NCBI GenBank assembly: GCA_045613785.1
Contig: JAZLBQ010000004.1
Coordinates: 47,830 to 111,829, forward strand
Origin: Candidatus Enterousia sp.
Lineage (GTDB): Bacteria; Pseudomonadota; Alphaproteobacteria; Rs-D84
Direction: 5' to 3'
DNA: 64,000 bases
Under the pieces are notes generated by a model. It did not search any database, was not told where the DNA came from, and was given only the letters and a program-made list of their open reading frames with translations. Each line of letters begins with the position of its first letter. The first letter of the stretch is position 1. Of this stretch, positions 8,107 to 60,440 are shown piece after piece. The translations under genes and the position numbers were made by a program.

Positions 8107-11100
8107 ATGCTGAAATTTTTCGTTCGCCGACCAATTACCACACTGATGTTTGTTTTAGTGTGGGTTGTATTGGGGTTGGTTTCATTTCCGAATATGAACA
8201 TTGAACGCACGCCTGCGGTTGATTTTCCGATGGTAACTGCGACCTTTGTTTATCCTGGTGCAACACCTGCAGAAATTGAATCTCAGATTATTAAACGTGC
8301 CGAAGACGCAATGTCAGAAGTGTCAGAATTAAAGAAAATAACATCTCAGGCTTATGAAAACAGTGGTTATGTTATGGCTGAATTTAACCTAGGTGTTGAC
8401 GTAAATGACAAGGCGACAGAAATCAAAACAAAACTAGATTCACTGATATCCGAATTTCCCGAGGATATGAATCAGCCTGTTGTCGAGAAGTTAAATCCAT
8501 TGCAGCAGTCTGTTGTAGATATTGTTTTGCACGGTGCAGACGCACGTGATTTGGAAGAGTATGTTGATAATTTCCTTTCTACAAAAATTACATCAATCAG
8601 TGGTGTTTCCAGTGTGTCGATTTTTGGTGGTCGTGAACGTGCAATTCGTATTGCGATGAATCCGGATTTGATGGCTGCAAACGGTGTAACGATAATGGAC
8701 GTAGTCTCTGCACTGGGGTCGCATAACTTGAACGTTCCTGGGGGTAAAATTGAGACAACAGCAAATTCATCAAACGTCCGTTTTGTAGGTGAATTTGCAT
8801 CGGTTGAAGAAATTGCAAATCTGCGTTTAACAACTGTTGAAGGTAACAAGTTCAAATTATCTGACATTGCCCAGATTTCTGATGCTGCCCGTGATATTGA
8901 AAACGGTGCACGTTATAATGGTGAATCTGTTGTAATTGCATCTGTGGTCAAGGCGTCAGATGGAAATGCAATAAATATATCACGTGCCTTGCACGAACGT
9001 CTGCCTCAGTTGCAATCGGATTTGGAATCACGTTTTCCGGGTGCACAGATGCAGATTGTTTCAGACTCGTCAATAACGATTGCAGATGAAACAGACAGCA
9101 CAATCAATGGTATTGTTCTGGGGGTTGTTTTAACTATTTTGGTTTTGTTAGCGTTTACTCGTAATTGGCGTTCAACGGTTATCGCAGGTGTAGTGATTCC
9201 TGCGTCATTGCTGGCTGGATTCTTCTTTATGGACAAAGATGGCTTTACAATCAATGCTATGACCTTGCTGGCATATTCTTCGGCACTGGGGACGTTGGTA
9301 TCGAATGCGATTATTTTGATTGAATCTGCCTTGCAAGAAATGCGTTCTGGCAAAAATTCCGAAGATGCCGCCATTGACGGAACTAAAAAAGTTGCCGTTT
9401 CTGTTTTGGCAGGTGTTGGCACAAACGTCGTAGTGTTCTTGCCGTTGGCGTTTATGGGCGGTATTGTTGGTCAGTTCATGGTTCAGTTTGGTATGACCGT
9501 TGTTTACTTGACATTGTTATCGTTGATGTTCTCGTTTACATTGACTCCGATGATGATTGCCAAGTTCCTGCGTCTAGGCAATCACGGCCAGGCCAAAAAA
9601 GAAAAACAAACATATCCAAAGCCGACCAGCACAGGTTGGTTGCGTCGTTGCTATGATTATCAGGCATCGCATCCGTGGCGTGTATTAGGGATAGTGTTTG
9701 TGATATTTATTTCATCTACGATGTTGATGAAGTTTGTTGGAAATGAGTTTCAGCCATCAACTGATGCGAACGAAATAACAATCACAGCACGTGCACCGAT
9801 GGGGGCGACATTTGAAAAGTCTGAATCAATTGCCGTTGATATAGAACAGGCCTTGACCCAGTTCCCAGAGGTTAAATCAACAACAGTAAAAATCGGCGAA
9901 CGTGGTCTTCAGAATATAACTGTGACTGTTGAATTAGTCGATGCATCTGAACGTAAATTATCAGACAAGATTTTAGCACAAAAAATCCTACCGGCGATTG
10001 CGAATATTCCAGATGCAGAAATTCAAATCCGGGCAGGCGAAGCAATGTCATCTGGTGTTTCATCGGATTTGGTTTTAAATGTGTTTGGTGAAGATGATGC
10101 GACTCGTGAAGCGTATGCGGACAGAATTATTGAAATTGTAAACCGTATTCCCGAAGTTCAGTCTGCTGTTCGTGCTCAGCAAGCACCTGCCATGGAAACA
10201 CAGTTTATTCCAGACCAAGACAAGATGAATTTCTGGGGTGTTCAAAATTCCTATGCAGGAACGACCTTGCGAACAGCACTTTACGGTAATGACGAATTCA
10301 AATACAAAGAATCCGGCGAAGAATACCCAATCATCTTGGAATTCGCCAAGCCCTTCAAAAATGCATCTTTGTTTGATACGGTCTATGTAAATTCGCAAAA
10401 AGGTATGGTGCCACTGTCGTCCTTAGGAACGGTCAAGACAGAACCAGGCACACCTGATATCCGCCGTGAAGACAAAAACAGATACACCGAAATTGATATC
10501 AATATTGGAAAATCAACAATGGGGCCAGTCCAGGCAAAGATTCAATCTGAATTAAATAAAATTGATTGGCAAGCCGGCTATTTTACCAAGTTTGGTGGTA
10601 TGTCTGATACCCAGGCAGAATCTGCCAGTGAAATTGGTCGTGCCTTCTTGTTGGCGACAATCTTGACCTTTATGTTGTTGGCTGCGATATTGAATTCATT
10701 AGTTCATCCGTTTACGATTGCCACGTCGATTTTGACCAGTTTCACAGGCGTATTCGTTATGATGTTCTTGTCCGGGGCGACAATGAACGTTGGTGCGATG
10801 TTGGCGTTTGTTATGTTGGTTGGTTTGGTGGTAAATAACAATATTTTGGTTTTAGAGCCAACTATTGTCCGAATTTCTCAGGGACAAGACGCAAAAACAG
10901 CCTTGTGGGCAGAATTGACCGACAAACGCAATATGGTATTGATGACATCGATTGCCGTTATTGCTGGTATGGTTCCACAGTTATGGTCTATTGACGGTAT
11001 GAAGGTCGCAATGGGTGCTGTTATGATTGGTGGTATGTTGGCCAGTCTGATATTTACCTTTACACTGACGCCGGCTTTATTCTTGCTTATGGAGCGTTTA

Positions 11101-11130
11101 CGCACATGGCGAACACGGCTGAAAAAATAA
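8107..11130 (+). CDS. RND efflux transporter permease (AcrB/HAE1-like), 1007 aa
   Basis: Twelve transmembrane segments and two large periplasmic loops. Typical RND motifs, such as the LSLMFSFTLTP region. Confidence 0.95.
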   Translation: MLKFFVRRPITTLMFVLVWVVLGLVSFPNMNIERTPAVDFPMVTATFVYPGATPAEIESQIIKRAEDAMSEVSELKKITSQAYENSGYVMAEFNLGVDVNDKATEIKTKLDSLISEFPEDMNQPVVEKLNPLQQSVVDIVLHGADARDLEEYVDNFLSTKITSISGVSSVSIFGGRERAIRIAMNPDLMAANGVTIMDVVSALGSHNLNVPGGKIETTANSSNVRFVGEFASVEEIANLRLTTVEGNKFKLSDIAQISDAARDIENGARYNGESVVIASVVKASDGNAINISRALHERLPQLQSDLESRFPGAQMQIVSDSSITIADETDSTINGIVLGVVLTILVLLAFTRNWRSTVIAGVVIPASLLAGFFFMDKDGFTINAMTLLAYSSALGTLVSNAIILIESALQEMRSGKNSEDAAIDGTKKVAVSVLAGVGTNVVVFLPLAFMGGIVGQFMVQFGMTVVYLTLLSLMFSFTLTPMMIAKFLRLGNHGQAKKEKQTYPKPTSTGWLRRCYDYQASHPWRVLGIVFVIFISSTMLMKFVGNEFQPSTDANEITITARAPMGATFEKSESIAVDIEQALTQFPEVKSTTVKIGERGLQNITVTVELVDASERKLSDKILAQKILPAIANIPDAEIQIRAGEAMSSGVSSDLVLNVFGEDDATREAYADRIIEIVNRIPEVQSAVRAQQAPAMETQFIPDQDKMNFWGVQNSYAGTTLRTALYGNDEFKYKESGEEYPIILEFAKPFKNASLFDTVYVNSQKGMVPLSSLGTVKTEPGTPDIRREDKNRYTEIDINIGKSTMGPVQAKIQSELNKIDWQAGYFTKFGGMSDTQAESASEIGRAFLLATILTFMLLAAILNSLVHPFTIATSILTSFTGVFVMMFLSGATMNVGAMLAFVMLVGLVVNNNILVLEPTIVRISQGQDAKTALWAELTDKRNMVLMTSIAVIAGMVPQLWSIDGMKVAMGAVMIGGMLASLIFTFTLTPALFLLMERLRTWRTRLKK

Positions 11131-23951: not shown

Positions 23952-26354
23952 TTACAGAATTGGTGGGAAGCAATCACCGCCTGTTTCAGGGCAACAGTTA
24001 AATCCTTGTTCGCCCATATCGGTGTATATTTCTCCTGGACAGCAACCATTTGCATCTGGTGCAATATCGCCTTCGCACATTATTTGTTCAACGACTTCCT
24101 CGACCGCTGGTTTCTCAGGTTTCTCAAATGGATTTTCAATTGCACCTGTTTCTTCGTCGTATTTCAGGCCCAACACCTGTTCATTATATGCTTGCTGCCC
24201 CTGATCTGCAACATATGCAATACTGTTCTGATTGCTTGTTGATTGCTGATTTTGGAATACAGCTTCCTGCTTTGCATTATTTATTGCCTTATATTGACTA
24301 GACTGGCAATAGAACAACACTGTTCTGTAATCTAGGCCTGCGTTGTATATCTCTTCTGCACTTGCTGTAACCTTGCCTGTGCTTAAATCGCAATACTGTG
24401 CCAAATTAAATGAACGCACCTGACCAACCCATTCTTCCCCTGACTGGTCAATATTCACAGAGTTTGCAACGCTATTGTAATTAAACCTATTTTGTTGTAA
24501 TGATTTACTGTAATAACTTTCCATCTTACAGCTTTTGCCACCGTCTGGACACACAACAATCAAGTCCTCTGGGGAATAGACTGTGATACGTGTTCCTGCT
24601 GCGATTGTAAACGGTGGAACAGTGTTATCCATCATATCGACCAACAGCTTTTGTGCAACCTGATTCCAGGCAGTAATGATTTCATTTTTTGCCAGTTCTG
24701 ATGAACGCACAGTTCCACTTTGAACGACTGTGTTGTTGTCCAAATCGATTTGATTTACAAACGCATCGCTGACAGGAGCAATCAAATTCACCGCTGCTGG
24801 CACAATCGCTGTCAACATTGGCATAATAAATTGTTCCATATAATCAGTGCTGCCACGTCCTGGCACGCCAACACGTCCTTGGGCATCACCTGCAAAAGGC
24901 TGATTTCCTTGATTGTTAAAGTTAAATTCAACACCATCTGGTCGTATAAACTGATACCAGTTTATTTGCATACGTCCAATTGCCTTGTATGGGCCTGGCA
25001 AATCACCTGTCACATATCCCAGCATCAAAGTTCCTGTTGGGATAATAATATTACGTCCGTCGTCTGAATAAACGTTTCTATCAACAGTTGCACGAACGGG
25101 CAGGGGGCGTCCATTTTTGAAAACTTCTGCATCGGCTCGAACTTCAGATACAATAGTTGCAGGAATTGGCTTGTATTGACGCAAAATGAAACTGCGGTCA
25201 TACGGTTGTGATGCAACAACGCCATCACCCGAAGTGCCAAATATTACTTCCGTAGTTTCTTTTAGCTTTAGTCCACCAAAAGCTTCCATACCGTTTGCAG
25301 TCAGGCGACCTGCACCACGACTGTTCATTACGACTGCATTTGCTTCATCCGAGTCCAGTTGGCGTGCACGATTTACAACCTTTATTGCAGGTGCATTAGA
25401 CAGTTCTGGGATTTTGCCATCCCATGTTGCAGCAAAAACGATATGGTCTGCATCTGTTCCTATCTTTTTACCTTTGTTATCAGTGATAATACCATTGTCT
25501 GGATTGTATGTTCCTGTTGGTTTTTCGCAGTTTTTATCTGAAAATGGGTGAAATTTATATGTTCCACCATCGGGTTTTATCCAACCGATTTGGACGCCAA
25601 AATTATTATAACCTGGGAAAGCAAAGTCCGTGCATCCATCAGGGATTTCAATTTTTTCAGTTTTTGCTGTCTTTGTCACAGGTTTTTCAATCTTTACTGA
25701 CGGAGAAATTGTTTCGACGTTCTTTTTAATTTCTTCTTTGACAGGCTCTGGTTCTGGCTTTGCTTCAATCACAGGCTCTGGTTCTGGCTCTGGTTCTGGC
25801 ACGATGACAGGTTCTGGGATTGGCTCAGGTTTTTTTTCAACGACTGGTGAAACAGCCCCCAAGGTCAGAACAATTTTCGAAGTCTTTTTCATTGCATCAG
25901 TTTCATCTGCTTTGTGCCAGTCAACGAACACAGGAACTTGTTCTGTTGCCATTGGTGCAGTTGGTGCATATGAAACAATCACCCCACAGGCTAGATTTTC
26001 GTTTATCTGTCCCATTTCAGTGCAAGTTCCTTTGACATCAAATCCCTTGATGTCCTTGTGGCGACGAACAGAAATCACCTTAACAGGAGCTGTTGCAGAA
26101 ATCTTGATTGTTTCAGTTTTTTTCTGTCCGATTGTCGTTTCTGCCCAGTTTATCATATCAGGGGAAATGACAATATCTACTGATCCGCTATCAGTGCTAG
26201 AAATATCTGATTTGCTTGATTTTTTATTATTTCCACTCAGCAGCAAGGTCAACAATATCAGCACCACAACAAATGCAGCCGCCATCAACAACCACTGCAC
26301 CCGTTTTGGTGTATTTTGTCGCATTTCTGAAAACTGTTCTTTGAAACTAGCCAT
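23952..26354 (-). CDS. virB10: Type IV secretion VirB10/TrbI-family protein, enlarged to 800 aa
   Basis: Short cytoplasmic N-terminus, a transmembrane helix (LLMAAAFVVVLILLTLLLS), a Pro-rich PEPEPEP linker and a TrbI/VirB10 beta-barrel core (RLTANGMEAFGGL...IGRMQINWYQFIRPDGVEFNF...PPFTIAAGTRITVYSPEDL). In addition there is an extra domain of about 120 aa before the linker and a Cys-rich C-terminal extension of about 190 aa (...GCCPGEIYTDMGEQGFNCCPETGGDCFPPIL). Confidence 0.85.
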   Translation of the reverse strand: MASFKEQFSEMRQNTPKRVQWLLMAAAFVVVLILLTLLLSGNNKKSSKSDISSTDSGSVDIVISPDMINWAETTIGQKKTETIKISATAPVKVISVRRHKDIKGFDVKGTCTEMGQINENLACGVIVSYAPTAPMATEQVPVFVDWHKADETDAMKKTSKIVLTLGAVSPVVEKKPEPIPEPVIVPEPEPEPEPVIEAKPEPEPVKEEIKKNVETISPSVKIEKPVTKTAKTEKIEIPDGCTDFAFPGYNNFGVQIGWIKPDGGTYKFHPFSDKNCEKPTGTYNPDNGIITDNKGKKIGTDADHIVFAATWDGKIPELSNAPAIKVVNRARQLDSDEANAVVMNSRGAGRLTANGMEAFGGLKLKETTEVIFGTSGDGVVASQPYDRSFILRQYKPIPATIVSEVRADAEVFKNGRPLPVRATVDRNVYSDDGRNIIIPTGTLMLGYVTGDLPGPYKAIGRMQINWYQFIRPDGVEFNFNNQGNQPFAGDAQGRVGVPGRGSTDYMEQFIMPMLTAIVPAAVNLIAPVSDAFVNQIDLDNNTVVQSGTVRSSELAKNEIITAWNQVAQKLLVDMMDNTVPPFTIAAGTRITVYSPEDLIVVCPDGGKSCKMESYYSKSLQQNRFNYNSVANSVNIDQSGEEWVGQVRSFNLAQYCDLSTGKVTASAEEIYNAGLDYRTVLFYCQSSQYKAINNAKQEAVFQNQQSTSNQNSIAYVADQGQQAYNEQVLGLKYDEETGAIENPFEKPEKPAVEEVVEQIMCEGDIAPDANGCCPGEIYTDMGEQGFNCCPETGGDCFPPIL
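25745..25836 (-). repeat. Simple-sequence repeat (GGTTCTGGC/GGCTCTGGT)n encoding the PEPEPEP linker of VirB10
   Basis: Directly visible nonamer/hexamer periodicity on the plus strand. It encodes PEPEPEPEPV on the minus strand. Confidence 0.6.
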
Positions 26355-26372
26355 CCCTCAAATCCACTAATT

Positions 26373-46196: not shown

Positions 46197-48148
46197 TTCC
46201 AGCGGCGTTTTGTAGTTGTGTATTTAACACGTCCGCCAGGATAAATTACAAATCCGCCTCGCAGAATTTTATGACCGCAATTTTCTGATTTTATATCAAA
46301 GTATGACACAATATATCTGACGCTGTCGTCATTGCATAACGATTTAATGTTGTTCATCAGTGGAACAAACTTTTGAATATATACGATATCGTTATATCGA
46401 TAGACGCCTTTGTTGTGCTTGTATCGTTTGTTTGGTGTGTTTGTGGCTTCTCCGTTAAATTTCTTCCAGGTTTCAAATGCAAAATAGTGATTTGATGAAC
46501 GGGATTTATTAAATTCTAGTTTGCCGTTATCATCGACAAACGCAACCAGTTCATTATCGTCAGTCGTCCAGAAAATTGGCTTTGGATTTGTCTGGACTAA
46601 AACAATTCCGATTCCAACAAACAGTGCAAATAAAACGCAGTTTATTTTCATCTTTATATTTCGAATTAAAATCAGACACATAAAACCGACAATAAAGCAA
46701 ATCATTGCATTGTTTGGAATGTGTGGCATATCTATGTTTGTCAATGGTAATTCTGAAATGCTGCGTGCGATATTCAGTGTTGTATCGTAAATCAAATGAG
46801 CCAGTTTTATTGGGGATAATATTCCAAACATTCCTGTAATTGTTCCAATCATAACCAGTGGCATAATTGCAACCGAAAATACAGGCAGTAAAATCAGGTT
46901 GCCAATCAAACTGTATGTTGGCAATGTTCCAAAGTGTGCCGCCACAAATGGGGCGGTAAACAGTGTGGCCACCAGTGAAGTCAAAAGCATTGCATAAATT
47001 ATTTTCAAGATTTTGTTTTCTGGCATCTTTGGTTTGATTTCATAATACAGCCAAATCAATCCGAATACTGCAGCAAACGACAGTTGAAATCCTGCCTGCA
47101 TAACATAGTGTGGGTTTATCAAGAAAGTTGCACAAAATGCCAGTGCTATATTTCGCATTGAAAACGCACTGCGTCCAAATATAAAGGCCATAAATACCAA
47201 TGTTGTCATCAAGAAAGCACGAATTGTTGCGACATCACAGCCGGACAAAAATAAATATCCAACCAGCCCAATCCACGCACATAATATTCCTGGAATTTTA
47301 GCCGGCACCCGTCGCACAATCCATGGCACAGCCCGAAACAAGGAAACGAAAATCAAAAACAACCAACCACCAACCAATGTCATGTGAAATCCACTGATTG
47401 ACCAAACGTGGCCAATGCCACTGCTAACCCAGATAGCAGCATCGTTTTCTGGAATTACGTTTTTATAGCCTAATACTAAACTGTCAACCAGAAAAGAATT
47501 TGTGTTGTTGTGAATATTGTTTCTGAACTTGTTCAGACTGTATTTAGTGTTATTTTCAATTACCTGAATGTTGTTTGCGTATCCTGTCGCACTTAAATTA
47601 TTAAAATATGCCCAGCGTGCATAGTCAAATGTTTCAGGTGCTGTTGCGGCTGATGGTTTGAATAATCCAACATTTGCACTAACTACGTCACCAATCTGGG
47701 GCAGGGCAATATTATCACCAACAGAAACTCGCACGATTGCATCGCCAGTTCCAGCTTTGATATCTTCTGCATTGGTGCTCAGATAAATTCTGCTTTTATC
47801 ATCTGTAAAATCAATTTTCTGAACTGTTCCAGTGATGTCCAGATTATGTAAGTTGCGTTTTATAACAGGTGTGTTGACAAGATTTGTATAAGCATTCGCA
47901 TAACAAAAACCGAAAGCAAAAATAAATATTGCCCGAACCAGGGTTGGAATTTTATTTACGGTCGCAAGTGTGATTAAAATCAGTGATAAAATTCCGGGGC
48001 AAAATAAACCAGGTTCTGTTGTCAGTGAAAAATACAAAGCCGCCCCTGCGGCCATCAGAAATGGCACGAACAGAAATCTGTTTTGTTGTTGAAGATTCAA
48101 CCATTTTCGCATGGAAAAAGTATAGGAATTTATTAGATTGCATATCAA
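46193..48148 (-). CDS. comEC: ComEC/Rec2-family DNA internalisation channel protein (651 aa)
   Basis: N-terminal DUF4131-like transmembrane region and the competence domain (SGFHMTLVGGWLF). It lacks an obvious C-terminal metallo-beta-lactamase domain. Convergent with truA, 4-nt overlap. Confidence 0.85.
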   Translation of the reverse strand: MICNLINSYTFSMRKWLNLQQQNRFLFVPFLMAAGAALYFSLTTEPGLFCPGILSLILITLATVNKIPTLVRAIFIFAFGFCYANAYTNLVNTPVIKRNLHNLDITGTVQKIDFTDDKSRIYLSTNAEDIKAGTGDAIVRVSVGDNIALPQIGDVVSANVGLFKPSAATAPETFDYARWAYFNNLSATGYANNIQVIENNTKYSLNKFRNNIHNNTNSFLVDSLVLGYKNVIPENDAAIWVSSGIGHVWSISGFHMTLVGGWLFLIFVSLFRAVPWIVRRVPAKIPGILCAWIGLVGYLFLSGCDVATIRAFLMTTLVFMAFIFGRSAFSMRNIALAFCATFLINPHYVMQAGFQLSFAAVFGLIWLYYEIKPKMPENKILKIIYAMLLTSLVATLFTAPFVAAHFGTLPTYSLIGNLILLPVFSVAIMPLVMIGTITGMFGILSPIKLAHLIYDTTLNIARSISELPLTNIDMPHIPNNAMICFIVGFMCLILIRNIKMKINCVLFALFVGIGIVLVQTNPKPIFWTTDDNELVAFVDDNGKLEFNKSRSSNHYFAFETWKKFNGEATNTPNKRYKHNKGVYRYNDIVYIQKFVPLMNNIKSLCNDDSVRYIVSYFDIKSENCGHKILRGGFVIYPGGRVKYTTTKRRWN

Positions 48149-51173: not shown

Positions 51174-52268
51174 ATGAAGAAATTTAGTTTTTCTGCCGTG
51201 TTTGCTGGTGTTTTATGTTCGTTGCCAATGGTGGCGGGGGCGGCTTATCCTGCATATCCGTCGTATCAAGCGGCCGGTGCTAATAATCAGATGATGTATT
51301 TGCCGTCTGTGAACAGTCGTGTTGTGTCGACTGCGGCAGCTATGCCTGGGTATAATTCTGTTGCTGCGGCTCAGCCTACACGTGTAACTGGTGCATTACC
51401 TCGTGTTGGGACATCACAAACTTCGGCTGGTCGTCAATATTATCAGCCTGCAGATTATGATAGGTTGGCAGACAGTGGTTTGTATGTTGGTTTGTCTGTT
51501 GGTTATACTGCATCAGTAATGGGGTCGATTTCGTCTGATTACACTGGCGAAGAAGATGCTTATACTGTTCCTGGTGCGTTCAAGGCAGCAGATTTTCAAT
51601 CAGATACAATGATTCCGCTTCAGGTTTCTGTTGGTGCGGCATTAAATAATGATGTTCGTGTTGACTTTTCTTATTTGCGTTATTCTGGTTTGTCTTATCC
51701 AAACACTGTTCAGACGGACGATGGTGCCGGTGGTTATGTTGAGGCACAGGTTGATGGTGGTGCGATAACAGCTAACGCAACAATGTTGAACGTTTATTAT
51801 AATATTGACTCGTATACAGGCTTTTTGGCTGGTGGTTCATTGCGGCCATATATTGGTGCCGGTGTTGGTATTTCATTAAATACGATTGCGGACTATGTTG
51901 TTTATGACAAAACCTTTTATTCTGTTATGGATCCAGCCTATGCAAATGCAGGTCAGTTGACGGGTATTTCTGATATTTATGCATATCACAACGGTGGCAC
52001 AAATGAACAGTTGGCCTTTATGTTAGAGGCTGGTATTACAACAGAACTAGAAGGTGGTATAAAAATGGACTTTTTTGCCCGTTATGCAAATCTTGGAACT
52101 GTAAAAACATCAGGCAGTATTGTTCTAAGTCAAATTGAATGGCTGGGTGATGGTGCAGGTGGTGAATACGAAGCACCGTATGACAGTGTATTTCATTATA
52201 CGAATTGGTATGAAAGCGGCCGCCTTGGGTTGGTTGATGTTGGTGTTCGTTTAAGATTGCAGTTCTAA
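51174..52268 (+). CDS. Outer-membrane beta-barrel protein (porin / OMP_b-brl-like), 364 aa
   Basis: Signal peptide MKKFSFSAVFAGVLCSLPMVAGAA. Alternating amphipathic Gly/Tyr-rich strands. C-terminal ...VGVRLRLQF ending in Phe. Confidence 0.75.
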   Translation: MKKFSFSAVFAGVLCSLPMVAGAAYPAYPSYQAAGANNQMMYLPSVNSRVVSTAAAMPGYNSVAAAQPTRVTGALPRVGTSQTSAGRQYYQPADYDRLADSGLYVGLSVGYTASVMGSISSDYTGEEDAYTVPGAFKAADFQSDTMIPLQVSVGAALNNDVRVDFSYLRYSGLSYPNTVQTDDGAGGYVEAQVDGGAITANATMLNVYYNIDSYTGFLAGGSLRPYIGAGVGISLNTIADYVVYDKTFYSVMDPAYANAGQLTGISDIYAYHNGGTNEQLAFMLEAGITTELEGGIKMDFFARYANLGTVKTSGSIVLSQIEWLGDGAGGEYEAPYDSVFHYTNWYESGRLGLVDVGVRLRLQF

Positions 52269-52331: not shown

Positions 52332-53975
52332 GTGATGAGACGCAAAAATTCAATCTTTTACTATTCTTTATTGGCGGCATTAGTGCCGTCTGTTGCTGGT
52401 GCTGGAATTCGTGTTGGGAATTTGTCTCGCAATAATGCCCAGGGCTATCAACAGGTAAACGAGGCACGTTATAACTCGGAACTTGCGACCCAGGCAGCGG
52501 TTGCTGCAATTCCTGCTGATTTGCCAACAACTGTTGCAAAGTCTGCGACAGATGACACGACTGTTGCATCCAAGGCACAGCGTTGTTCGATGATTTATCC
52601 CGAAGGTGAATTTGCCTGGGGTAAGCCTACGCTTGGGGCTGGTTCTGGCGGTGCGTCAACTTGCACGGCTGTTGTTGAATTGCGTGCGATTGGGGCTGGT
52701 GAAAATGGTAATGATGCAATCTTGGCACGTGCAAACCTGGCAGCAGGAGATAGTTTTAATTGCAATATTTCTGAATTTAACGAGGTGTCATTGTTGCCTG
52801 CTGCTGGCACGATTGAATTTCCGGCAGATCGTGAGCCAACGGTTGATGATGTTGTGTCTGTTCTGAATCAAGAGCAGCGTCAAAATGCAGGAATTAAAAT
52901 TGCTGCAGGAACTGTGTTGTTTGGTTTAGCAGGAAACATTGCTGGTGAAAACGAGCCTGGCAAGGATGGATTATTGGGCGGTGGTCGCTCTAAAACCCAG
53001 GGGACGATTATTGGTGCATTGGGTGGTGCGGCATTGATGGCAGGTAATGCTTATTCGGGCAAGGTTGCTGGCGATATGATACTGTCAACTGGTGTAAATG
53101 CTGCGGCTGGCGGATTAGTTGGGAATATTGTTGCCAGTGGTGATTCTGTTTTGCGTATTGAACCATGTCAGGTTGCGGGCTGGGATACAAAGTGCCTTTG
53201 GGGTGTTATCGAAGAAGTTTCGTCCATAGACGGCACTGCGTATGTTTCTGCGAATGATATCAATGACTTTCGTGTTTGCTCAGGCACTACATGTGGACGT
53301 GCGGATTTGACGTCTGCTGTGGTTGCGGAATATAACGGCAAAAAGCGTGCATCTGACGGCAAAAAAATGGAATTGTCCGATATGCAGACTGAAAATTGGT
53401 CGTTGGTTCAAAGTATGTATTGTTATGATGCTGCCTACGGTATGGTTCAGGGGGCTAGTTGCACAGATGGTCCGTGGATAAAACTGGATTCTGCTCAGCG
53501 TGTGGCAAATCGCACGGCGGCAATGGTTGTTGATGTCCGGGACAAGGCCTTTGGTTGGCATAAAGATGAATGGTCGGACTTTAAGGCTAGTCATAATGGT
53601 AATTTGATTGTTGGTCGTTCTGGTAATGGTATTGCAACGAATTTGAATCCACGGGATGTAATATCGGATGCGACTGATGATACCGAGATAAAATTGTCGG
53701 CTGTAAATTTCCGTCCTGTATATCAGGATTCTGATGATGGTGGTGTTATTGATTTGAATAACAAGGCACGCCTGAAAAGCACATTGACTGGTGCCGGTGT
53801 TGGTGGTGCTATGGGGGCATTTACTGGATATCAGGGTGCACAAAGTGATATTGATGAACGTTGGGTATCTGCTGTGCGTGAGTATAAGGATAGTTCGCAA
53901 AAGTTTTATTGTGCAACAGGTAAACGTTTCTTGTCGTATTACAATGATGTGGTTATGATTCCAAGTCTGGATTAA
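52332..53975 (+). CDS. Secreted Gly-rich hypothetical protein, 547 aa, with signal peptide
   Basis: MMRRKNSIFYYSLLAALVPSVAGAG signal. About 10 Cys. Gly/Ala-rich segments. No recognised domain. Confidence 0.7.
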   Translation: MMRRKNSIFYYSLLAALVPSVAGAGIRVGNLSRNNAQGYQQVNEARYNSELATQAAVAAIPADLPTTVAKSATDDTTVASKAQRCSMIYPEGEFAWGKPTLGAGSGGASTCTAVVELRAIGAGENGNDAILARANLAAGDSFNCNISEFNEVSLLPAAGTIEFPADREPTVDDVVSVLNQEQRQNAGIKIAAGTVLFGLAGNIAGENEPGKDGLLGGGRSKTQGTIIGALGGAALMAGNAYSGKVAGDMILSTGVNAAAGGLVGNIVASGDSVLRIEPCQVAGWDTKCLWGVIEEVSSIDGTAYVSANDINDFRVCSGTTCGRADLTSAVVAEYNGKKRASDGKKMELSDMQTENWSLVQSMYCYDAAYGMVQGASCTDGPWIKLDSAQRVANRTAAMVVDVRDKAFGWHKDEWSDFKASHNGNLIVGRSGNGIATNLNPRDVISDATDDTEIKLSAVNFRPVYQDSDDGGVIDLNNKARLKSTLTGAGVGGAMGAFTGYQGAQSDIDERWVSAVREYKDSSQKFYCATGKRFLSYYNDVVMIPSLD

Positions 53976-54007: not shown

Positions 54008-55672
54008 TTAAACGAATTTTTCAGGAACCAGATTGCAAATGTTTTTCCAGATTCTGCGTAATATCCCAGTGTCTGGTGCGTGTTTGTAAACGCGTGGTTT
54101 TTCGTCGCCTGGTCGTTTGCCTGTCCATACTGGGTCGTTGTTTGCGTTTAGGCTGACCTGCCAAGATGTTTGTGTGTCTTTGATGATCATTTCACGCAGT
54201 TTGTTTGCAAAATCACGACTTTCAAAGATTGCTACGTTTTCGGTATTGTAATACGCGCTTCTTGGGTCCAGGTTGAAACTGCCAATCCAAGAAATGTCGT
54301 CGTCGAACACCATAGTTTTGCTGTGCAGGACAGAAAAACTGGATTGTTTACGCTCACGGTCATGTTCTTTGCCACGCAGATTTTCAGCAGAAACCATAAA
54401 TTCATAAACGTCTGCACCTGATTCAATCAAGTGTTTTCTGTATTTTTCCCACTTTGCATATACGGTTGGTGCATTGGTTGAAGCCAATGAGTTTGTCACA
54501 ATGGTCAAATGAACGCCTGATTTTTCTTCGTTTAACATATGTTCCAATCCACCTTGTCCTGGAACAAAATAAGCAGCGGACATATAGACTGATTTGTTTG
54601 TTCTGTCCCACAGGTGTTGTAATGCACGAACAATTTCGCCACGATATTGTTCTTTTTCTTCCATAGACATTTCGACTTTTTGTGGTGGGTCAGCCAAGAA
54701 TTTTCCATGTCCCCAACTAAAATCAAGTCTTTTTTGCTTAAAATCACGTTGTGCTAGTGAAATAATAGTATTGTATCTGCGAACATCTTCGGCACTTCGT
54801 TTTTCGATATCTTCGAATGTTCGTTCCAGTTTACGCATTGCCTTTTTAGATTTTGCCTTTGGGAAAACGGCGGCGGGTATTGACAGGTGATGATTCCAGT
54901 ATTCGTTAAAACTGTCGGTGGCATAGTGTGTCATGTCTCCGATAAACAGCACGTCGGTATCAGAAAAGTTTGATGCTGTTTCTGGATAGAAATAGTTGCT
55001 GCCAACGTTTCGTCCACCTGTGATATATGCGATATTGTCAACGATGAACAGTTTGTTGTGCATGCGTGAGTTTAATCGATTAAAGTCTGTTAAGAATTGA
55101 GGGTAATATAATAATCTAGAACGGTTTCGAACAGTATTAAAAACTTTAACTTCTATATTAGGGTGTTGGTTTAGCAGCATAACATCGACGATGTCTGACT
55201 TTGTTCCATAGTCATCAACCAGTATTCGAACCTTGACGCCACGGTCTGCGGCGTTTTTTAGTTCGCCAATCAGAACTTTTGAAGAAAAGTCGTTACTGTA
55301 AATGTATGTCTGTAAATCAATTGTCTTAGTCGCCATTCTGGCAAACGCTGAACGTATTACAAATGCAGACAATCCGTCTTCGATAAGTGTTGCACCAGAT
55401 ATGTCGGGGCTTTGGCTAAGTTCATCGTCATAGCACATTGCGATTGGAGTTTTGTATGGGTCATAGTCAAAGTCAGATGACGTAATTTTTGCCTGATAGT
55501 TATCCAGTCTTGCGTCATTTGTTGTTGTTGGGACGGTTGTGCATCCCATCAAGGGTAGAGCTAAAATCCACATCGAAACTTTTTTAAGAATGTTCAACGC
55601 TAGTTTCCTTTGCCTAAAAATAATACAGTTGCGATTATAGTTAAATAAAAACGTTCCTGCAAGTAAATTCAT
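54008..55672 (-). CDS. Phospholipase D / cardiolipin-synthase-family lipoprotein with two HKD motifs
   Basis: HNKLFIVD and LHSKTMVFDD HKD motifs. Probable true start is the ATG at 55573 (MWILALPLMGC, lipobox LMGC). The ORF-track start at 55672 would add 33 aa. Confidence 0.85.
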   Translation of the reverse strand: MNLLAGTFLFNYNRNCIIFRQRKLALNILKKVSMWILALPLMGCTTVPTTTNDARLDNYQAKITSSDFDYDPYKTPIAMCYDDELSQSPDISGATLIEDGLSAFVIRSAFARMATKTIDLQTYIYSNDFSSKVLIGELKNAADRGVKVRILVDDYGTKSDIVDVMLLNQHPNIEVKVFNTVRNRSRLLYYPQFLTDFNRLNSRMHNKLFIVDNIAYITGGRNVGSNYFYPETASNFSDTDVLFIGDMTHYATDSFNEYWNHHLSIPAAVFPKAKSKKAMRKLERTFEDIEKRSAEDVRRYNTIISLAQRDFKQKRLDFSWGHGKFLADPPQKVEMSMEEKEQYRGEIVRALQHLWDRTNKSVYMSAAYFVPGQGGLEHMLNEEKSGVHLTIVTNSLASTNAPTVYAKWEKYRKHLIESGADVYEFMVSAENLRGKEHDRERKQSSFSVLHSKTMVFDDDISWIGSFNLDPRSAYYNTENVAIFESRDFANKLREMIIKDTQTSWQVSLNANNDPVWTGKRPGDEKPRVYKHAPDTGILRRIWKNICNLVPEKFV

Positions 55673-55777
55673 TATATTTTTTAATGATTTAGGAACGTGT
55701 TCTTAGTATTTGTGATTTTTGTGTTAATTTTTATTTTCTGTTATGGTAAAATAATAAAATAGGAAGGGTTGTTTTTT

Positions 55778-58072
55778 ATGAAAAGATTTGTTGCAGTTCT
55801 TAGTGGTCTTTTATTTTTGCCAGCATATGCCCAGGCTGTGCCTGTTTATAGCGAGGCTGATGTCGATACGTTGGTTGGTGATTTGCCTGGTAAAAACGAA
55901 GTAGAGGTTGATGATATTGATGCTGCTGCATTTGTAGTTCCTGTGGCACAGGCGTCTTCTCGTAATCCACGTGCAAGTGCTGCGTCTGCATCACGTGCTG
56001 TTCCTGCTGGGGCGGGGACGACGCCTAATACACGTTCTGCTTCGACACGTGCGACAATTGGTTCCAGAAATGTTTCAAGTTCTACGATTGCACGCAGTGC
56101 GGCTGCGAATTCGATTGCTCGTTCGACTGGTCGTTCTGTTGTTTCTACTGCGGGGCGTAATGCATCACGGGTGGCACGCAATTCAACAGTCCCTGTTGCT
56201 CAGTCTGTTACAGAGCGTCGTTCAGGTGTATCTGTAAATTCTGCTACGAATACTGCACGTTCGGTCAGTGCACGTGTTCCGACGATTGCCACAACGGTCG
56301 GGACTTCTTCTGCAACCACTAAATCAGAGCCTGTAGCTGTTGCGGATGTTGTGTCAAAAATGGACGAAGTTGCGAACTTGACTGCAACATGCAAGACACA
56401 ATATACAGAATGTATGGATAATTTCTGCAATGTTCTGGATGATAACCAGGGGCGTTGCTCTTGCTCAAAAAATATCAAGAACTACGAGAAAACAGAAAAT
56501 GCCTTAAAAGAAGCGACCGAGGCATTAAAGGATATTGCACAGCAGATTCAGTATATTGGTCTGACAGGTGAAGAGATTGAGATTTTGTTTTCCCAGACCG
56601 AGGCTGAAGCACAAATGCAGCAAACAAATGACAGTTCTCGTCTGAAAAACGACTTGGATAAAATTAAAAAACTGTTGGTTGAAGTCAAGGGGTCAACAGC
56701 CTCATCGTCTGAGGTGAATATAAGTTTTGACTTGTCTGGTTTGCTAGATTTTAGTGTGGATAGCAGTGGGTTTGATTTGGCGTCGTTGTTTGGTAGCACG
56801 TCTGCGAATACGTCCAGTATCAGCAATCAGCGTGGTGAACAGTTGTATAAGACTGCTGCGGCTCGTTGTAAAAAGGCGGTTTTAGAAGAATGTGATACTA
56901 TGGGTGTTGATGTATCTGTTATATCTAATGCCTATGACATGGAAATTGATAAGCAGTGTGTTGCGTATGAGCGTCGATTGACTGACACGAACGAAGAAAT
57001 GGTTCAGACAGTTCGTAATGCGAAAAATGTGTTGCAACGTGCTCGTTTGATGGTTGCTCAGAATAAAAATACATATGATTTACGTGGTTGTGTAAACGCA
57101 CTTGATTCTTGTATGCAGGATGACTTTGTTTGTGGTTCTGATTATGAGTATTGCCTGGATCCGACGGGTAAGTATATTGTGAACGGTGAAATTGTTGTTG
57201 GGTCGATGCCAGGTTATGTTATCGATGCTAACCAAACGCCGGCACCATCGACTGATTATCCTAAGGAAACTCTGTATGGCACATGGTATTATGATGAAAA
57301 TGTCTATGCCTGGGGGATGTCTGGTAATATATCAGACTATATAGATAAAAACAACACTTCTTCGGCTGTGACCAAGACTGATGCAAATATGGCGAAATAT
57401 CTGCAATATAAAATTGGGTATAATGATGGCGGCAAGAATTATGGAATGTGTATGTCTGTCTTGAACAAGTGTCAAGATATCACATACAGTAATGGTAAAT
57501 ATCAACCAGATAACCAAGTTGTTCGTGAATACCTGCGTCGCACATTGGTTCAGATAAAGGCCAGTCAAGATGCAGTTTTGCGTGATTATGCATCAAGCTG
57601 CATAGCTGATGTTTCAACTTGTTTGTCGTCAAATAATTACGAAGCCGGCAATACAACTAAAAGCAATATCGCAATCAATGCATGTCGTGCGGAAATTGTA
57701 ACGTGTATGTCTGTAAATGGTGATACGACCAAGACCCCAACCCCAAGTAGTATGAAACAATGGGTTGATGCAATCAATTCAGTTTCATCAGGCGATTCTG
57801 GCACAACGAGTTCTCCTGTTCCTGTTGGTTGCTCTCAAGAATATTTTTATTATAATGGTTCGACCTGTGTTTCGTGCAAGAATGGAACATGGGACGACGT
57901 GCAAAAAGGATGTAAATGTACCACATATTATAATGGGGCGATAACAGAGTATACGGTGGGCGGTGGGTGCTCATGCACAGGTGATACCCGTGAAGAAGCT
58001 GATTATTGCACGGGTGAAATATATGGTTATCACCTGTTTACATCTGGTGGTAGTTATCAACCTGATAAATAA
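55778..58072 (+). CDS. Secreted Cys-rich protein, paralog A (about 764 aa)
   Basis: Signal peptide MKRFVAVLSGLLFLPAYAQA after an AGGAAGGG RBS. Acidic stretch, then an Arg/Ser/Ala/Thr-rich low-complexity region of about 130 aa. Conserved Cys-rich core (CKTQYTECMDNFCNVLDDNQGRCSCSKNIKNYEKTE...). Divergent Cys-rich tail (CVSCKNGTWDD...). Confidence 0.8.
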   Translation: MKRFVAVLSGLLFLPAYAQAVPVYSEADVDTLVGDLPGKNEVEVDDIDAAAFVVPVAQASSRNPRASAASASRAVPAGAGTTPNTRSASTRATIGSRNVSSSTIARSAAANSIARSTGRSVVSTAGRNASRVARNSTVPVAQSVTERRSGVSVNSATNTARSVSARVPTIATTVGTSSATTKSEPVAVADVVSKMDEVANLTATCKTQYTECMDNFCNVLDDNQGRCSCSKNIKNYEKTENALKEATEALKDIAQQIQYIGLTGEEIEILFSQTEAEAQMQQTNDSSRLKNDLDKIKKLLVEVKGSTASSSEVNISFDLSGLLDFSVDSSGFDLASLFGSTSANTSSISNQRGEQLYKTAAARCKKAVLEECDTMGVDVSVISNAYDMEIDKQCVAYERRLTDTNEEMVQTVRNAKNVLQRARLMVAQNKNTYDLRGCVNALDSCMQDDFVCGSDYEYCLDPTGKYIVNGEIVVGSMPGYVIDANQTPAPSTDYPKETLYGTWYYDENVYAWGMSGNISDYIDKNNTSSAVTKTDANMAKYLQYKIGYNDGGKNYGMCMSVLNKCQDITYSNGKYQPDNQVVREYLRRTLVQIKASQDAVLRDYASSCIADVSTCLSSNNYEAGNTTKSNIAINACRAEIVTCMSVNGDTTKTPTPSSMKQWVDAINSVSSGDSGTTSSPVPVGCSQEYFYYNGSTCVSCKNGTWDDVQKGCKCTTYYNGAITEYTVGGGCSCTGDTREEADYCTGEIYGYHLFTSGGSYQPDK
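56390..57230 (+). repeat. Direct repeat copy 1 (conserved core of the tandem paralogs)
   Basis: Aligns to 58807..59640 with mostly synonymous or conservative differences. Confidence 0.8.
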
Positions 58073-58170
58073 ACCTCTTATCATCATTTGTCCTAAAACT
58101 CAATTTTTTCAATTGCGTTGCATTGCGTAATGTGATAAAATGAAACATAATTAGAGGGAAGGATTAAGCC

Positions 58171-60375
58171 GTGAAAAGATTTTTAGCTGTCTTAAGTGGG
58201 TTACTTGTATTGCCTGCATATGCCGAAATTGCACCTGTTTATTATGAAATAGACAGTGATTATGAATCGGTCGATGTCGCTGGTGACAGTGAACAGGATG
58301 TTGATGAAATTGATGTCGCTGCTGTTGCTGTGCCGGTTTCTCAGACAACTGCTCGTGCGTTGCGTGCATCAAATGCGGCGTCGTCACGTGCAATGCCAAC
58401 AGGTGCCAGGGCGGTAAATTCTCGTTCTGCAGCGACCCGTGCAACGACTTCTCGTAATGTTTCGAATTCAAATGTGGCACGCACTGCTACAAATACGGCA
58501 ATGGCACGTTCTGGTGCATCACGTGTTGCGTCTCGTTCAATGGCACGTTCTGGTGCGACACAGATTGCCACAACACGTCAGGCAATGCAGAATAATGGAA
58601 CAACTGCACGTGCAGCGATTGTTCAAACTGATACGGTTCGCACCCCATTATATACCGGTCGGGTCAGTTCACGTGCCAGTGCTGTTCGTGCACGTATCCC
58701 AACAATTACATCTGTTTCTGGTAACGTTTCAACAACAACTGGCGGCACGGTTGATGCAGCTACAGCTGCGGCTGAAATGGACGAATTGGCACAGTTGACT
58801 GATTTCTGCAAGGCACAATACACAGATTGTATGGATAACTTCTGTAATGTTCTGGACGATAACCAGGGGCGTTGTTCTTGTTCAAAGAATATCAAAAATT
58901 ATGAAAAGACAGAAACTGCGTTAAAAGAAGCGACCGAAGCATTAAAAGACGTCGCGCAACAAATTCAGTATATTGGTCTGACCAGTGATGAAATTGAAAC
59001 ATTGTTTACTCAGACAGAAGCTGAACTTGAAATGCAACAAACAACAGACAGTTCACGTCTGAAAAACGATTTGGATAAAATTAAAAAGCTGTTGGTTGAT
59101 GTAAAAGGTTCGGCTGCATCTTCGTCCGAAGTGGATATGAGTTTTGATTTGTCTGGTCTATTGGACTTCAGTGTGAACAGCACGGGCTTTGATTTGACAT
59201 CATTATTTGGTGGCACAACAACAAATACATCCAGTATCAGTAACCAACGTGGTGAACAGTTGTATAAAACAGCAGCCTCACGTTGCAAAAAGGCAGTTTT
59301 GGAAAATTGTCAGAACCAAGGCGTTGATATTTCAATTATCTCAAACGCATATGACCTGGAAATCGACAAGCAGTGTGTGGCATATGAACGTCAGTTGACA
59401 GATACTAACGAAGAAATGTCGCAAACTGTCCGCAATGCTAAGGGGGTTTTGCAGCGTGCACGTTTGATGGTTGCCCAGAACAAGAATTCGTATGACTTGC
59501 GTGGCTGTGTAAATGCACTGGATTCATGTATGCAGGACGATTTTGTCTGCGGAACAGATTATGAATACTGTCTGGATCCAACCGGCAAGTATATCGTAAA
59601 CGGCGAAGTTGTTGTTGGGTCAACGCCTGGCTTTATGGTCAAAAAGGACGAGGGATCTTCTGCAGTATTCCCAGATGAATCTGATAAGGACGCTAAGGGT
59701 AAAAATACCCTGTTGGCTGGCTGGTATTATGGCGAAAAATATGCTTGGGCTGATACAAGTGCTAATGGTGATTTGATGGGGTATATTGAAAACTATACCA
59801 AAACATCAGCTGTAGAAAAGCCAACGTCTGTATATGCTGAATATCTGCAATATAAAATTGGATATAACGACGGAACAAAAAATCACGGTATGTGTATGTC
59901 TGTTCTGAACAAATGTCAAGACCTTTCCTATGAAAAGGGAAAGTATAAGCCTAATAATAATGTAGTTAAGGAATATTTGACCCGGACACTGACCCAAATT
60001 AAGGCGGCTCAGGACGAAATATTGGCAGAATATGCATCAAATTGTTTGTCTGACGTGTCATCGTGTTTGTCATCAAATAACTATGTTGCAGAAAACACGA
60101 CCAAAGCAAACATTGCAATCAATGCGTGTCGTTCTGAAATTGTCACGTGTATGTCTGTAAATGGTAATGCAGCGGCTACTCCAAATCCGGAAGAAATGAA
60201 GAATTGGGTTGCGGGAATGGTTGGTTGCACCAAGGAAGGCTTTGAATGGGATTCAAGTAATAAGAAATGTGTGTCCTGTGTTGGTGGCAGCTGGGATGCA
60301 ACTGATAACACGTGTGATTGCCCATCCGGTGCTTCTTATGATGTAGTCAATGGGTGCGTAAAAGCAGCAAGCTAA
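58171..60375 (+). CDS. Secreted Cys-rich protein, paralog B (734 aa; GTG start)
   Basis: MKRFLAVLSGLLVLPAYAEIAP. GTG start preceded by an AGAGGGAAGGA RBS. Same architecture as paralog A. The conserved core is roughly 85 percent identical at nucleotide level by eye. The C-terminal tail retains CVSCVGGSWDA. Confidence 0.8.
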   Translation: MKRFLAVLSGLLVLPAYAEIAPVYYEIDSDYESVDVAGDSEQDVDEIDVAAVAVPVSQTTARALRASNAASSRAMPTGARAVNSRSAATRATTSRNVSNSNVARTATNTAMARSGASRVASRSMARSGATQIATTRQAMQNNGTTARAAIVQTDTVRTPLYTGRVSSRASAVRARIPTITSVSGNVSTTTGGTVDAATAAAEMDELAQLTDFCKAQYTDCMDNFCNVLDDNQGRCSCSKNIKNYEKTETALKEATEALKDVAQQIQYIGLTSDEIETLFTQTEAELEMQQTTDSSRLKNDLDKIKKLLVDVKGSAASSSEVDMSFDLSGLLDFSVNSTGFDLTSLFGGTTTNTSSISNQRGEQLYKTAASRCKKAVLENCQNQGVDISIISNAYDLEIDKQCVAYERQLTDTNEEMSQTVRNAKGVLQRARLMVAQNKNSYDLRGCVNALDSCMQDDFVCGTDYEYCLDPTGKYIVNGEVVVGSTPGFMVKKDEGSSAVFPDESDKDAKGKNTLLAGWYYGEKYAWADTSANGDLMGYIENYTKTSAVEKPTSVYAEYLQYKIGYNDGTKNHGMCMSVLNKCQDLSYEKGKYKPNNNVVKEYLTRTLTQIKAAQDEILAEYASNCLSDVSSCLSSNNYVAENTTKANIAINACRSEIVTCMSVNGNAAATPNPEEMKNWVAGMVGCTKEGFEWDSSNKKCVSCVGGSWDATDNTCDCPSGASYDVVNGCVKAAS
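58807..59640 (+). repeat. Direct repeat copy 2 (conserved core of the tandem paralogs)
   Basis: See copy 1. Confidence 0.8.
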
Positions 60376-60396
60376 ATAAAGTCGTTTAAAGGCTAA

Positions 60397-60440
60397 ATTA
60401 AATCCCCTGCAATCGCAGGGGATTTAATTTGGTATGTCAT
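60397..60440 (+). terminator. Rho-independent terminator after paralog B (AAATCCCCTGCAATCGCAGGGGATTT)
   Basis: 10-bp GC-rich stem and T-rich tail. Confidence 0.55.

Follow-up and report, generated by a model that had tools for sequence, protein, structure and literature searches.

A tandem pair of probably exported, disulfide-rich paralogs from a new protein family of the Candidatus Enterousia lineage

Introduction

What role could be played by two large, adjacent genes whose products begin with a signal sequence, carry a fixed pattern of cysteines and match no described domain family? The question is raised by a locus of Candidatus Enterousia sp. (assembly GCA_045613785.1, contig JAZLBQ010000004.1), of which a stretch of 64,000 nucleotides (positions 47,830 to 111,829 of the contig; hereafter the window) was analysed. 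The two genes, called A and B, both lie on the + strand, and window coordinates are used throughout. As set out below, A and B are, with high confidence, real, selected, exported and disulfide-rich paralogs of a new, lineage-restricted family. Their function is read as that of an extracytoplasmic envelope or cell-surface "stalk" protein, a reading for which belief and doubt are about balanced.

The host is Candidatus Enterousia, a reduced-genome gut bacterium of the order Rs-D84. Rs-D84 genomes measure 0.75-1.0 Mb and lack the tricarboxylic acid cycle, respiration and standard transporters, and a partner-dependent or scavenging life has been proposed for these organisms (PMC12306168), which are also present in termite guts (PMC11257099). 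Literature searches on Enterousia and Rs-D84 turned up genome surveys, in which the family is not mentioned. An earlier inspection of the DNA, hereafter the sequence-only reading, had likened the pair to surface proteins of obligate intracellular bacteria. The host does not bear out this likeness, being a gut bacterium that is possibly dependent on partners and is not known to be obligate intracellular. The window encodes TolC/AcrB-type efflux, LspA, YidC and a SPOR-domain carboxypeptidase, and the TolC/AcrB-type, LspA, YidC and penicillin-binding-protein genes of the organism indicate that it is probably diderm.

Architecture of the gene pair

The two genes and the segments of their products are as follows; models 1 and 2 are the structure predictions described further below.

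55778-58072, + strand: gene A, open reading frame of 764 amino acids (aa) with an ATG start; the faster-evolving paralog
55778-55831, + strand: predicted signal peptide of A, aa 1-18, MKRFVAVLSGLLFLPAYA, predicted cleavage after AYA; the only Kyte-Doolittle window above 1.6 in A; motif kept family-wide
55853-55921, + strand: acidic block of A, aa 26-48, with nine D/E; net charge of aa 19-59 is -8
55955-56347, + strand: basic Arg/Ser/Thr/Ala-rich region of A, aa 60-190, net charge +15, read as disordered from its composition and a predicted local distance difference test score (pLDDT) of 24-36 in model 1
56360-57217, + strand: core block 1 of A, aa 195-480, long helices with 12 invariant Cys, net charge -17; from alignments, and helical in both models
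57218-57397, + strand: variable segment of A, aa 481-540, from the alignment; a low-pLDDT loop or hairpin region; proportion of nonsynonymous differences (pN) 0.41 versus B
57398-57772, + strand: core block 2 of A, aa 541-665, helices with 6 invariant Cys as three CX6C pairs
57773-58069, + strand: optional Cys-rich tail of A, aa 666-764, 8 Cys; only some family members have such a tail
58171-60375, + strand: gene B, open reading frame of 734 aa with a GTG start; the ortholog-like copy
58171-58224, + strand: predicted signal peptide of B, aa 1-18; by hydropathy the only hydrophobic segment of B
58348-58764, + strand: basic disordered region of B, aa 60-198, net charge +16, no Lys after K2
58777-59634, + strand: core block 1 of B, aa 203-488, 95% identical to the ortholog at locus L004
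59635-59841, + strand: variable segment of B, aa 489-557, 42% identical to the L004 ortholog
59842-60216, + strand: core block 2 of B, aa 558-682
60217-60372, + strand: Cys-rich tail of B, aa 683-734, with 6 Cys; six short beta strands in model 2 (residues 502-542, pLDDT 78-87)

Both reading frames are intact and their products are 61% identical over 756 columns (BLASTP, E=0), which bears out the tandem, same-strand paralog pair proposed by the sequence-only reading; a tblastn search of the 64-kb window for further copies returned none besides A and B. Among database proteins, B is 100% identical to P0007, while A is 95% identical to P0001 and 75% identical to P0002. The start of A is best placed at the ATG at 55778, which is preceded at a distance of ten bases by a Shine-Dalgarno sequence (AGGAAGGG, 55761-55768); the mechanically called start is a TTG at 55769, three codons earlier. 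The GTG start of B is shared by the B ortholog of a second species, and its ribosome-binding site is AGAGGGAAGGA at 58153-58163. That one of the copies is a pseudogene was considered and rejected, as both frames are open and the orthologs of both show ratios of nonsynonymous to synonymous substitution rates (dN/dS) far below 1.

Each protein starts with a predicted Sec-type signal peptide of the form MKRF(V/L)AVLSGLL(F/V)LPAYA with an A-x-A cleavage site, which is the sole hydrophobic segment of either protein. It is followed by the acidic block (net charge -8 in A and -12 in B) and by the basic low-complexity region, in which S, A, T, V, R and N prevail and Lys is essentially lacking. The charge of this disordered region (+15 in A, +16 in B) is opposed to that of core block 1 (-17 and -18, respectively). 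The first 200 residues of A and B hold no Cys and thus no lipoprotein lipobox. The tail of B carries the motif CVSCVGGSWDATDNTCDC, which resembles the C..GG.W...C.C repeats of long family members. The signal peptide, acidic stretch, basic low-complexity region, SRNVS(S/N) island, Cys motifs and CVSC-x-G-x-WD ... CxC tail listed by the sequence-only reading are all present in sequence or alignment. Two of its descriptions need adjusting: the core is conserved as claimed, but instead of a single stretch of about 330 aa it comprises two blocks (A aa 195-480 and 541-665) around a variable segment of about 60 aa, and of the C-terminal tails described as divergent, the truly optional part is limited to the last 50-100 aa.

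A lineage-restricted family with a fixed cysteine pattern

Relatives of A and B are numerous and without exception unnamed or "hypothetical": more than 1,268 matches were found among 90% clusters, 604 representatives of 50% clusters match (181 of them with E<1e-30), and 196 loci were confirmed in species-representative genomes. Locus counts given below out of 80 refer to the 80 listed of these 196 confirmed loci. The record titles of the 80 name nearly always Candidatus Enterousia or uncultured Alphaproteobacteria/Rickettsiales. Three have anomalous titles (Muribaculaceae, Bacteroides fragilis and an unclassified "bacterium"), and these are probably mis-binned or mis-labelled contigs of metagenome-assembled genomes (MAGs). 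More distant members are likewise "hypothetical proteins" from MAGs of Alphaproteobacteria or Rickettsiales. Judging from these records, the family so far appears confined to the Rs-D84/Candidatus Enterousia lineage in every source that names an organism.

Profile searches agree with the view that no described domain family is present. In Pfam, A had no matches and B only FTA4, whose 18.7 bits stay below the cut-off of 24.8; in NCBIfam, A and B reached an E-value of 0.04 at best, far short of the cut-off, and sequence and profile searches of the PDB gave no match for either protein. The tails of A and B had no Pfam match even at E<=10, and five very long relatives yielded nothing usable in Pfam or NCBIfam except Flg_new in one of them, P0229. 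Together with the outcome of the fold searches described below, these results support the corresponding claim of the sequence-only reading.

The most constant property of the family is its cysteine content. An alignment of 134 diverse members has 18 invariant or nearly invariant Cys in a body of about 470 aa, and among 170 complete members the body holds exactly 18 Cys in 154 cases and 20 in another 15. The disordered region is free of Cys in 169 of the 170, and of 60 tails with at least two Cys, 56 have an even count. Seven Cys pairs of the body are found at CX6C spacing. These patterns strongly indicate that the body cysteines, which are largely spaced as CX6C pairs, are best read as nine disulfides. 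Since the cysteines are conserved and their counts even, and since a predicted signal peptide is present, A and B are likely to be disulfide-bonded extracytoplasmic proteins. The spacing may be understood by analogy with the twin-CXnC helical hairpins (CX3C/CX9C) of the mitochondrial intermembrane space, in which the Cys are placed one fixed helical repeat apart on paired helices. These proteins differ from A and B in being small single hairpins with another spacing and in another compartment.

The disordered region has the same character throughout the family, with 10.5% Arg, 1.8% Lys, 27% Ser plus Thr and 17% Ala, and with five residues as the commonest distance between two Arg. The extension beyond the body, on the other hand, ranges from 0 to 1,671 aa across members, and it is built of C..GG.W...C.C repeats or, in the distant member P0229, of Listeria-Bacteroides repeats (three PF09479 repeats, E=4e-15, 56 bits with the cut-off at 27). 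In A and B, the tail corresponds to one or two Cys modules like those of the long extensions. Such tails and arrays are small disulfide-rich beta modules similar in kind to EGF-like and ephrin-receptor-like modules, from which they are set apart by Pfam scores far below threshold (best E 0.005-0.3). With the surface proteins that carry Listeria-Bacteroides repeats (PF09479, Flg_new), only P0229 shares the repeat; it is absent from A and B, and no Flg_new protein is related to the conserved body. In another Enterousia species, which has the family gene as a single copy, a 113-aa protein with a weak match to the Cys-rich Ephrin_rec_like family is encoded a few kb upstream of this gene (L002, 3939-4280; L003, 454-795). 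Some members (P0122, P0128) hold 111-121 Cys over a length of 1,600-2,300 aa; their lineage is reported to have no respiratory chains.

Predicted fold of the body

AlphaFold modelling of full-length A with 17 sequences gave a poor result (model 1; pLDDT 46), in which residues 1-198 stayed below 40 and are read as disordered. The AlphaFold2 model of the body and tail of B, based on 94 diverse sequences, reached a pLDDT of 84.4 and a predicted template modelling score (pTM) of 0.71 (model 2). It contains helices of 30, 28, 21, 50 and 39 residues and a disordered loop (body residues 123-160); the variable segment forms short hairpins and the tail a six-strand beta knot. Model 2 thus strongly indicates that the body is an elongated bundle of long helices with a small, optional disulfide-rich beta knot at its end.

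Foldseek searches against the PDB and BFVD returned no match below E=0.9, so that the claim of a new family stands on this test as well. As predicted, the fold is a helical, disulfide-braced one without a detectable solved relative, and its only resemblance is a generic one to helical-bundle surface proteins. The top PDB matches were helical-bundle coat proteins of trypanosomes (the Trypanosoma brucei metacyclic invariant surface protein, 5vtl, and the haptoglobin-haemoglobin receptor, 4e40/4x0j), which are, like A and B, secreted and elongated bundles of long, disulfide-stabilised helices with variable distal loops. These matches are not significant (E 0.97-8, template modelling score 0.14) and come from unrelated organisms; A and B have no glycosylphosphatidylinositol anchor and no sequence similarity to these proteins, which leaves an analogy of shape only.

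Selection and divergence

Substitution ratios were calculated by the Nei-Gojobori method on codon alignments. Between A and B, core block 1 (A aa 195-480) has a dN of 0.08, a saturated dS of about 2.2 and a dN/dS of 0.037, in keeping with the purifying selection on the core claimed by the sequence-only reading. The ratio is 0.48 in the basic region, 0.21 in the variable segment and 0.26 in the tail; it is lowest in the core and in no segment exceeds 1. The further claim of relaxed or diversifying evolution of the termini holds in so far as these are more variable, but diversifying selection finds no support, at this resolution, in ratios that stay below 1 throughout, and a relaxed basic region applies to A (0.35 in the comparison of orthologs) but not to B (0.047).

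The same pair is found with the same synteny in a relative, Candidatus Enterousia sp. GCA_045637165.1 (locus L001/L004). For A and its ortholog A2, dN/dS is 0.155 overall, 0.038 in the core, 0.35 in the basic region and 0.14 in core block 2, and for B and its ortholog B2, the overall value is 0.14, with 0.021 for the core and 0.047 for the basic region, which is thus constrained like the core. An N-terminal motif found family-wide, IVQTDTV.TPLYTGRVSSRASAVRARIPTI, is kept in B and largely lost in A, and A lies on the longer branch of a neighbour-joining tree. Because of these ortholog ratios, the retained motif and the branch lengths, the comparison strongly indicates that the ortholog-like copy is B and that A is a younger duplicate, which evolves faster but is still functional and under purifying selection. 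In the related species (L001, 10001-14461), the core dS between the paralogs A2 and B2 is 0.56, compared to about 2.2 for A and B in the window, and this lower value suggests gene conversion between A2 and B2.

The variable segment behaves differently from its surroundings. In the comparison with L004, the segment of B reaches 42% identity, against 95% in the flanking core and 93-98% in neighbouring genes, and its proportion of synonymous differences (pS 0.78) is saturated. Low identity and saturated synonymous sites amid such well-conserved neighbours suggest that the segment was replaced as a cassette by recombination instead of changing in place under positive selection. Among 23 Enterousia loci at which the neighbouring genes are present as well, the segment is mostly unalignable to the window, and the median identity to the window is 75% for core block 1, 61% for core block 2 and 38% for the basic region, as compared to 80% for a neighbouring phospholipase D (PLD) superfamily protein, 72% for an M13 peptidase and 58% for a radical-SAM protein. 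At the other end of the scale, the median identity is 97% for a set of 95 near-identical variants of 687 aa that probably belong to one species, and strain-level hypervariation was therefore rejected.

Tandem pairs occur in 8 of the 80 loci, and two family copies in the window compare with one to three per locus elsewhere; the tree shows tandem duplications that arose independently in at least 3-4 lineages. The distant locus L085 (5733-12289) has three tandem Cys-rich genes, two of which encode family members of 689 and 711 aa that are 47% identical to each other. The 722-aa protein encoded upstream of them shares with the family only the N-terminal disordered region and the first Cys-helix, which hints that the N-terminal module may be reused on other bodies.

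An envelope or surface stalk and its alternatives

The function that we consider, as stated, with about equal belief and doubt is that of an extracytoplasmic stalk in the envelope or on the cell surface. After export and cleavage of the signal peptide, the mature protein would open with a charge-segregated disordered segment, acidic first and then basic for about 130 aa. The Arg-rich part of this N-terminus could hold the molecule to an anionic component of the envelope (lipopolysaccharide (LPS), phospholipid or peptidoglycan) or to the acidic bodies of its neighbours, and the acidic, rigid helical body would serve as a spacer. The variable segment and, in other members, the C-terminal arrays of up to about 1,700 aa would form the distal end that faces an interaction partner; an extracellular position of the C-terminus is suggested by the Listeria-Bacteroides repeats of P0229. 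Further features of a surface type are the low interspecies identity of the variable segment and the recurrent tandem duplication. The likely role would be contact with a partner cell or with material of the host; for its metabolites, the organism is predicted to rely on others.

Several observations weigh against this function. Surface exposure in a probable diderm needs a route across the outer membrane, which was not identified for A and B: no autotransporter barrel, lipobox, C-terminal sorting signal or adjacent secretion gene was found. The fold searches gave generic helical bundles only and no functional pointer. Since 110 of 170 members have no Cys in their C-terminal tail and the commonest form, of about 687 aa, ends just past the body, the main function must be carried by the body and not by a displayed tip. 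The lineage is anaerobic and non-respiring, which makes the formation and upkeep of nine or more disulfides hard to account for. Finally, core block 1 is conserved to the same degree as neighbouring housekeeping genes (median 75% versus 58-80%) and the 95 near-identical 687-aa variants differ little from each other (median identity 97%), and this combination also fits a periplasmic structural protein.

Such a protein is the main rival to the stalk, although we hold it to be somewhat unlikely. It would be a housekeeping element of the envelope, for example a spacer or tether that links inner membrane, peptidoglycan and outer membrane and whose Arg-rich region binds peptidoglycan or phospholipid head groups. 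A Sec signal as the only targeting feature, with none for the outer membrane found in A or B, is what a periplasmic scaffold calls for, and it is matched by the housekeeping-like conservation of the core (dN/dS 0.02-0.04), the occurrence of the family at 196 loci of species-representative genomes of the lineage, the small diversity of the 687-aa variants and, in the model, elongated rigid helices shaped like those of periplasm-spanning proteins. Against it, a periplasm would not easily accommodate arrays of up to about 1,700 aa, which include Listeria-Bacteroides repeats and are of a type usual in extracellular proteins; moreover, one segment and the tail change fast between close species, and recurrent duplication has led to two or three divergent copies.

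A third possibility, which we regard as improbable, takes its cue from the gene upstream of A:

54008-55672, - strand: PLD-superfamily gene, divergent from A; PLDc_2 and PLDc matches; predicted lipoprotein with two HKD motifs

Here, the helical protein would bind or present anionic phospholipids, for example phosphatidic acid released by PLD, and would attack or harvest the lipids of a partner or host together with the PLD lipoprotein, in the manner of a saposin activator. The lipobox of the PLD protein, LPL[MVIA]GC, is conserved in its orthologs, and translation probably starts about 25 codons inside the longest open reading frame. In 70 of 80 Enterousia loci, the PLD gene lies divergently upstream of the family gene, sometimes with an epimerase gene in between, while the M13 peptidase, radical-SAM and mraZ genes of the same loci shift position. 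Arg-rich sequences are, in general, good binders of phosphomonoester lipids, which favours a partnership with PLD. The proposal that Rs-D84, lacking standard transporters, takes metabolites from partners (PMC12306168) points the same way. However, the adjacency is gone in distant members (L084, L085) and at second copies elsewhere in the genome, and may be no more than inherited synteny; a family-wide PLD linkage is thus rejected, as it holds only within Enterousia. Moreover, neither sequence nor fold gave a match to saposins or to a lipid-binding family, and a SapB profile match or a saposin fold with its three conserved disulfides was not found. The PLD itself is a generic two-HKD enzyme close to cardiolipin synthases, under whose model cut-offs it scores, so that ordinary membrane biogenesis could explain it.

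The idea of a surface antigen or adhesin is, as an analogy, a reasonable one, and A and B share with such families a secreted and Cys-rich nature, a conserved scaffold with variable ends and tandem paralogs, to which the trypanosome invariant surface protein bundle (5vtl, E=0.97) as top, non-significant Foldseek match may be added. In its strict form, by which A and B would belong to a family of variable surface antigens shaped by diversifying selection like those of Anaplasma, Ehrlichia or Rickettsia, we nevertheless consider it very unlikely. Every segment has a dN/dS below 1, only one to three copies are present without pseudogene cassettes, the 95 variants probably from one species are 97% identical in the median, no Surface_Ag_2/OMP-1 or autotransporter domain is present, and the host is not a known intracellular pathogen. 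Antigenic variation, which is defined by many copies or cassettes, positive selection and high diversity within a species, was accordingly rejected. With the surface antigens of Rickettsiales (Sca autotransporters; Msp2/OMP-1, PF01617), A and B have in common that they are lineage-specific secreted proteins of reduced-genome Alphaproteobacteria and sometimes arranged in tandem. They differ in their helical fold, their low copy number, the absence of an autotransporter or beta-barrel domain and of any sign of antigenic variation: by Pfam, neither protein has the C-terminal beta-barrel translocator of the Sca type, its place being taken by a Cys-rich knot of 50-100 aa, and neither matches Surface_Ag_2 (PF01617).

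An extended version of the surface stalk, which we see as a long shot, would make it the surface coat of a partner-dependent, epibiotic or parasitic lifestyle hitherto unrecognised in gut Alphaproteobacteria. The proteins would be exported by Sec, oxidised in the periplasm and, by way of a periplasmic intermediate, carried across the outer membrane in the way of pertussis toxin by a VirB-type type IV system encoded 27 kb away; they would then self-assemble through the +15 arm and the -17 body, dock to partner membranes and harvest lipids with the PLD lipoprotein, as the principal contact organ of the cell and with a new fold.

A polymorphic toxin or bacteriocin, in which a conserved N-terminal module would deliver toxin domains that vary at the C-terminus, is hardly credible and was rejected, because the conserved N-terminal body and highly variable extensions that recall it come without a toxin, nuclease, peptidase or deaminase domain in the tails examined, which are repetitive Cys-rich modules and are missing from most members, and because the gene downstream is a paralog, an M13 peptidase or an unrelated gene instead of a small immunity-like one.

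Flanking elements and other genes of the window

Three elements flank or separate the two genes:

55744-55768, + strand: putative promoter and ribosome-binding site of A, read in the sequence; extended -10 TGgTAAAAT (55744-55752) and the Shine-Dalgarno sequence AGGAAGGG (55761-55768)
58105-58170, + strand: promoter and 5' leader of B; TTGCGT (58113-58118), 17 nt, extended -10 TGaTAAAAT (58133-58141) and the ribosome-binding site AGAGGGAAGGA
60392-60433, + strand: terminator-like hairpin 3' of B with a 19-bp stem

A generic sigma-70 promoter scan picked up neither promoter and gave a number of hits equal to the shuffled expectation; interspecies footprinting was used in its place. The upstream block of A, including TGxTAAAAT, is conserved at the orthologous locus L001, from which A is inferred to have an extended -10 promoter of its own. 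The last 77 nt before B are identical to L001 at 75 positions, whereas synonymous sites of the same two species differ by a dS of 0.5-0.9 and the 45 nt after the stop codon of A have diverged. The B promoter (TTGCGT-17-TAAAAT) and GTG start proposed by the sequence-only reading agree with this conserved block, within which the -10 element is an extended one. The footprints thus strongly indicate that each gene has its own extended -10 promoter. No terminator-like hairpin was found between A and B, and Rfam and tRNA scans gave no RNA element near the pair.

Some further genes of the window can be recorded. Upstream of the PLD gene lie two genes for hypothetical proteins with a signal peptide, one of 364 aa (51174-52268, + strand), which has a sub-threshold Surface_Ag_2 match and is present in 5 of the 80 loci, and one of 547 aa (52332-53975, + strand), which has no family match, contains Gly-rich, zipper-like stretches and is present in 2 of the 80. 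A 673-aa open reading frame without a Pfam or NCBIfam match (1347-3368, - strand) lies between APH-like phosphotransferase genes at 564-1304 and 3492-4430. An RND efflux operon (6152-11130, + strand) consists of a TolC-like OEP gene, an unusually short adaptor-like gene of 202 aa with a weak RND_mfp match, and AcrB. A cluster at 23952-28614 (- strand) encodes VirB10-like (800 aa, unusually long, with a weakly TonB-like N-terminal part), VirB9/CagX-like (518 aa) and VirB8-like (223 aa) proteins; judging from this VirB8/9/10-like cluster, a genome of less than 1 Mb has here kept a type IV secretion system.

Implications

Enterousia and other Rs-D84 occur widely in the guts of humans, livestock, birds and termites and have never been cultured. 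The family described here is among the largest conserved secreted proteins of Rs-D84 genomes. Its general kind, a lineage-specific, secreted and disulfide-rich protein, is familiar, while the family and its fold are new. If A and B were only periplasmic structural proteins, their interest would be limited to the envelope biology of the lineage. Proteins with up to about 120 Cys, almost all of them apparently paired in disulfides, are also a puzzle in an anaerobe that does not respire. Given its restriction to one lineage, the strong selection on its sequence, its repeated duplication and the long repeat arrays of some members, it provides a concrete candidate for a molecule by which these bacteria may interact with a partner or host.

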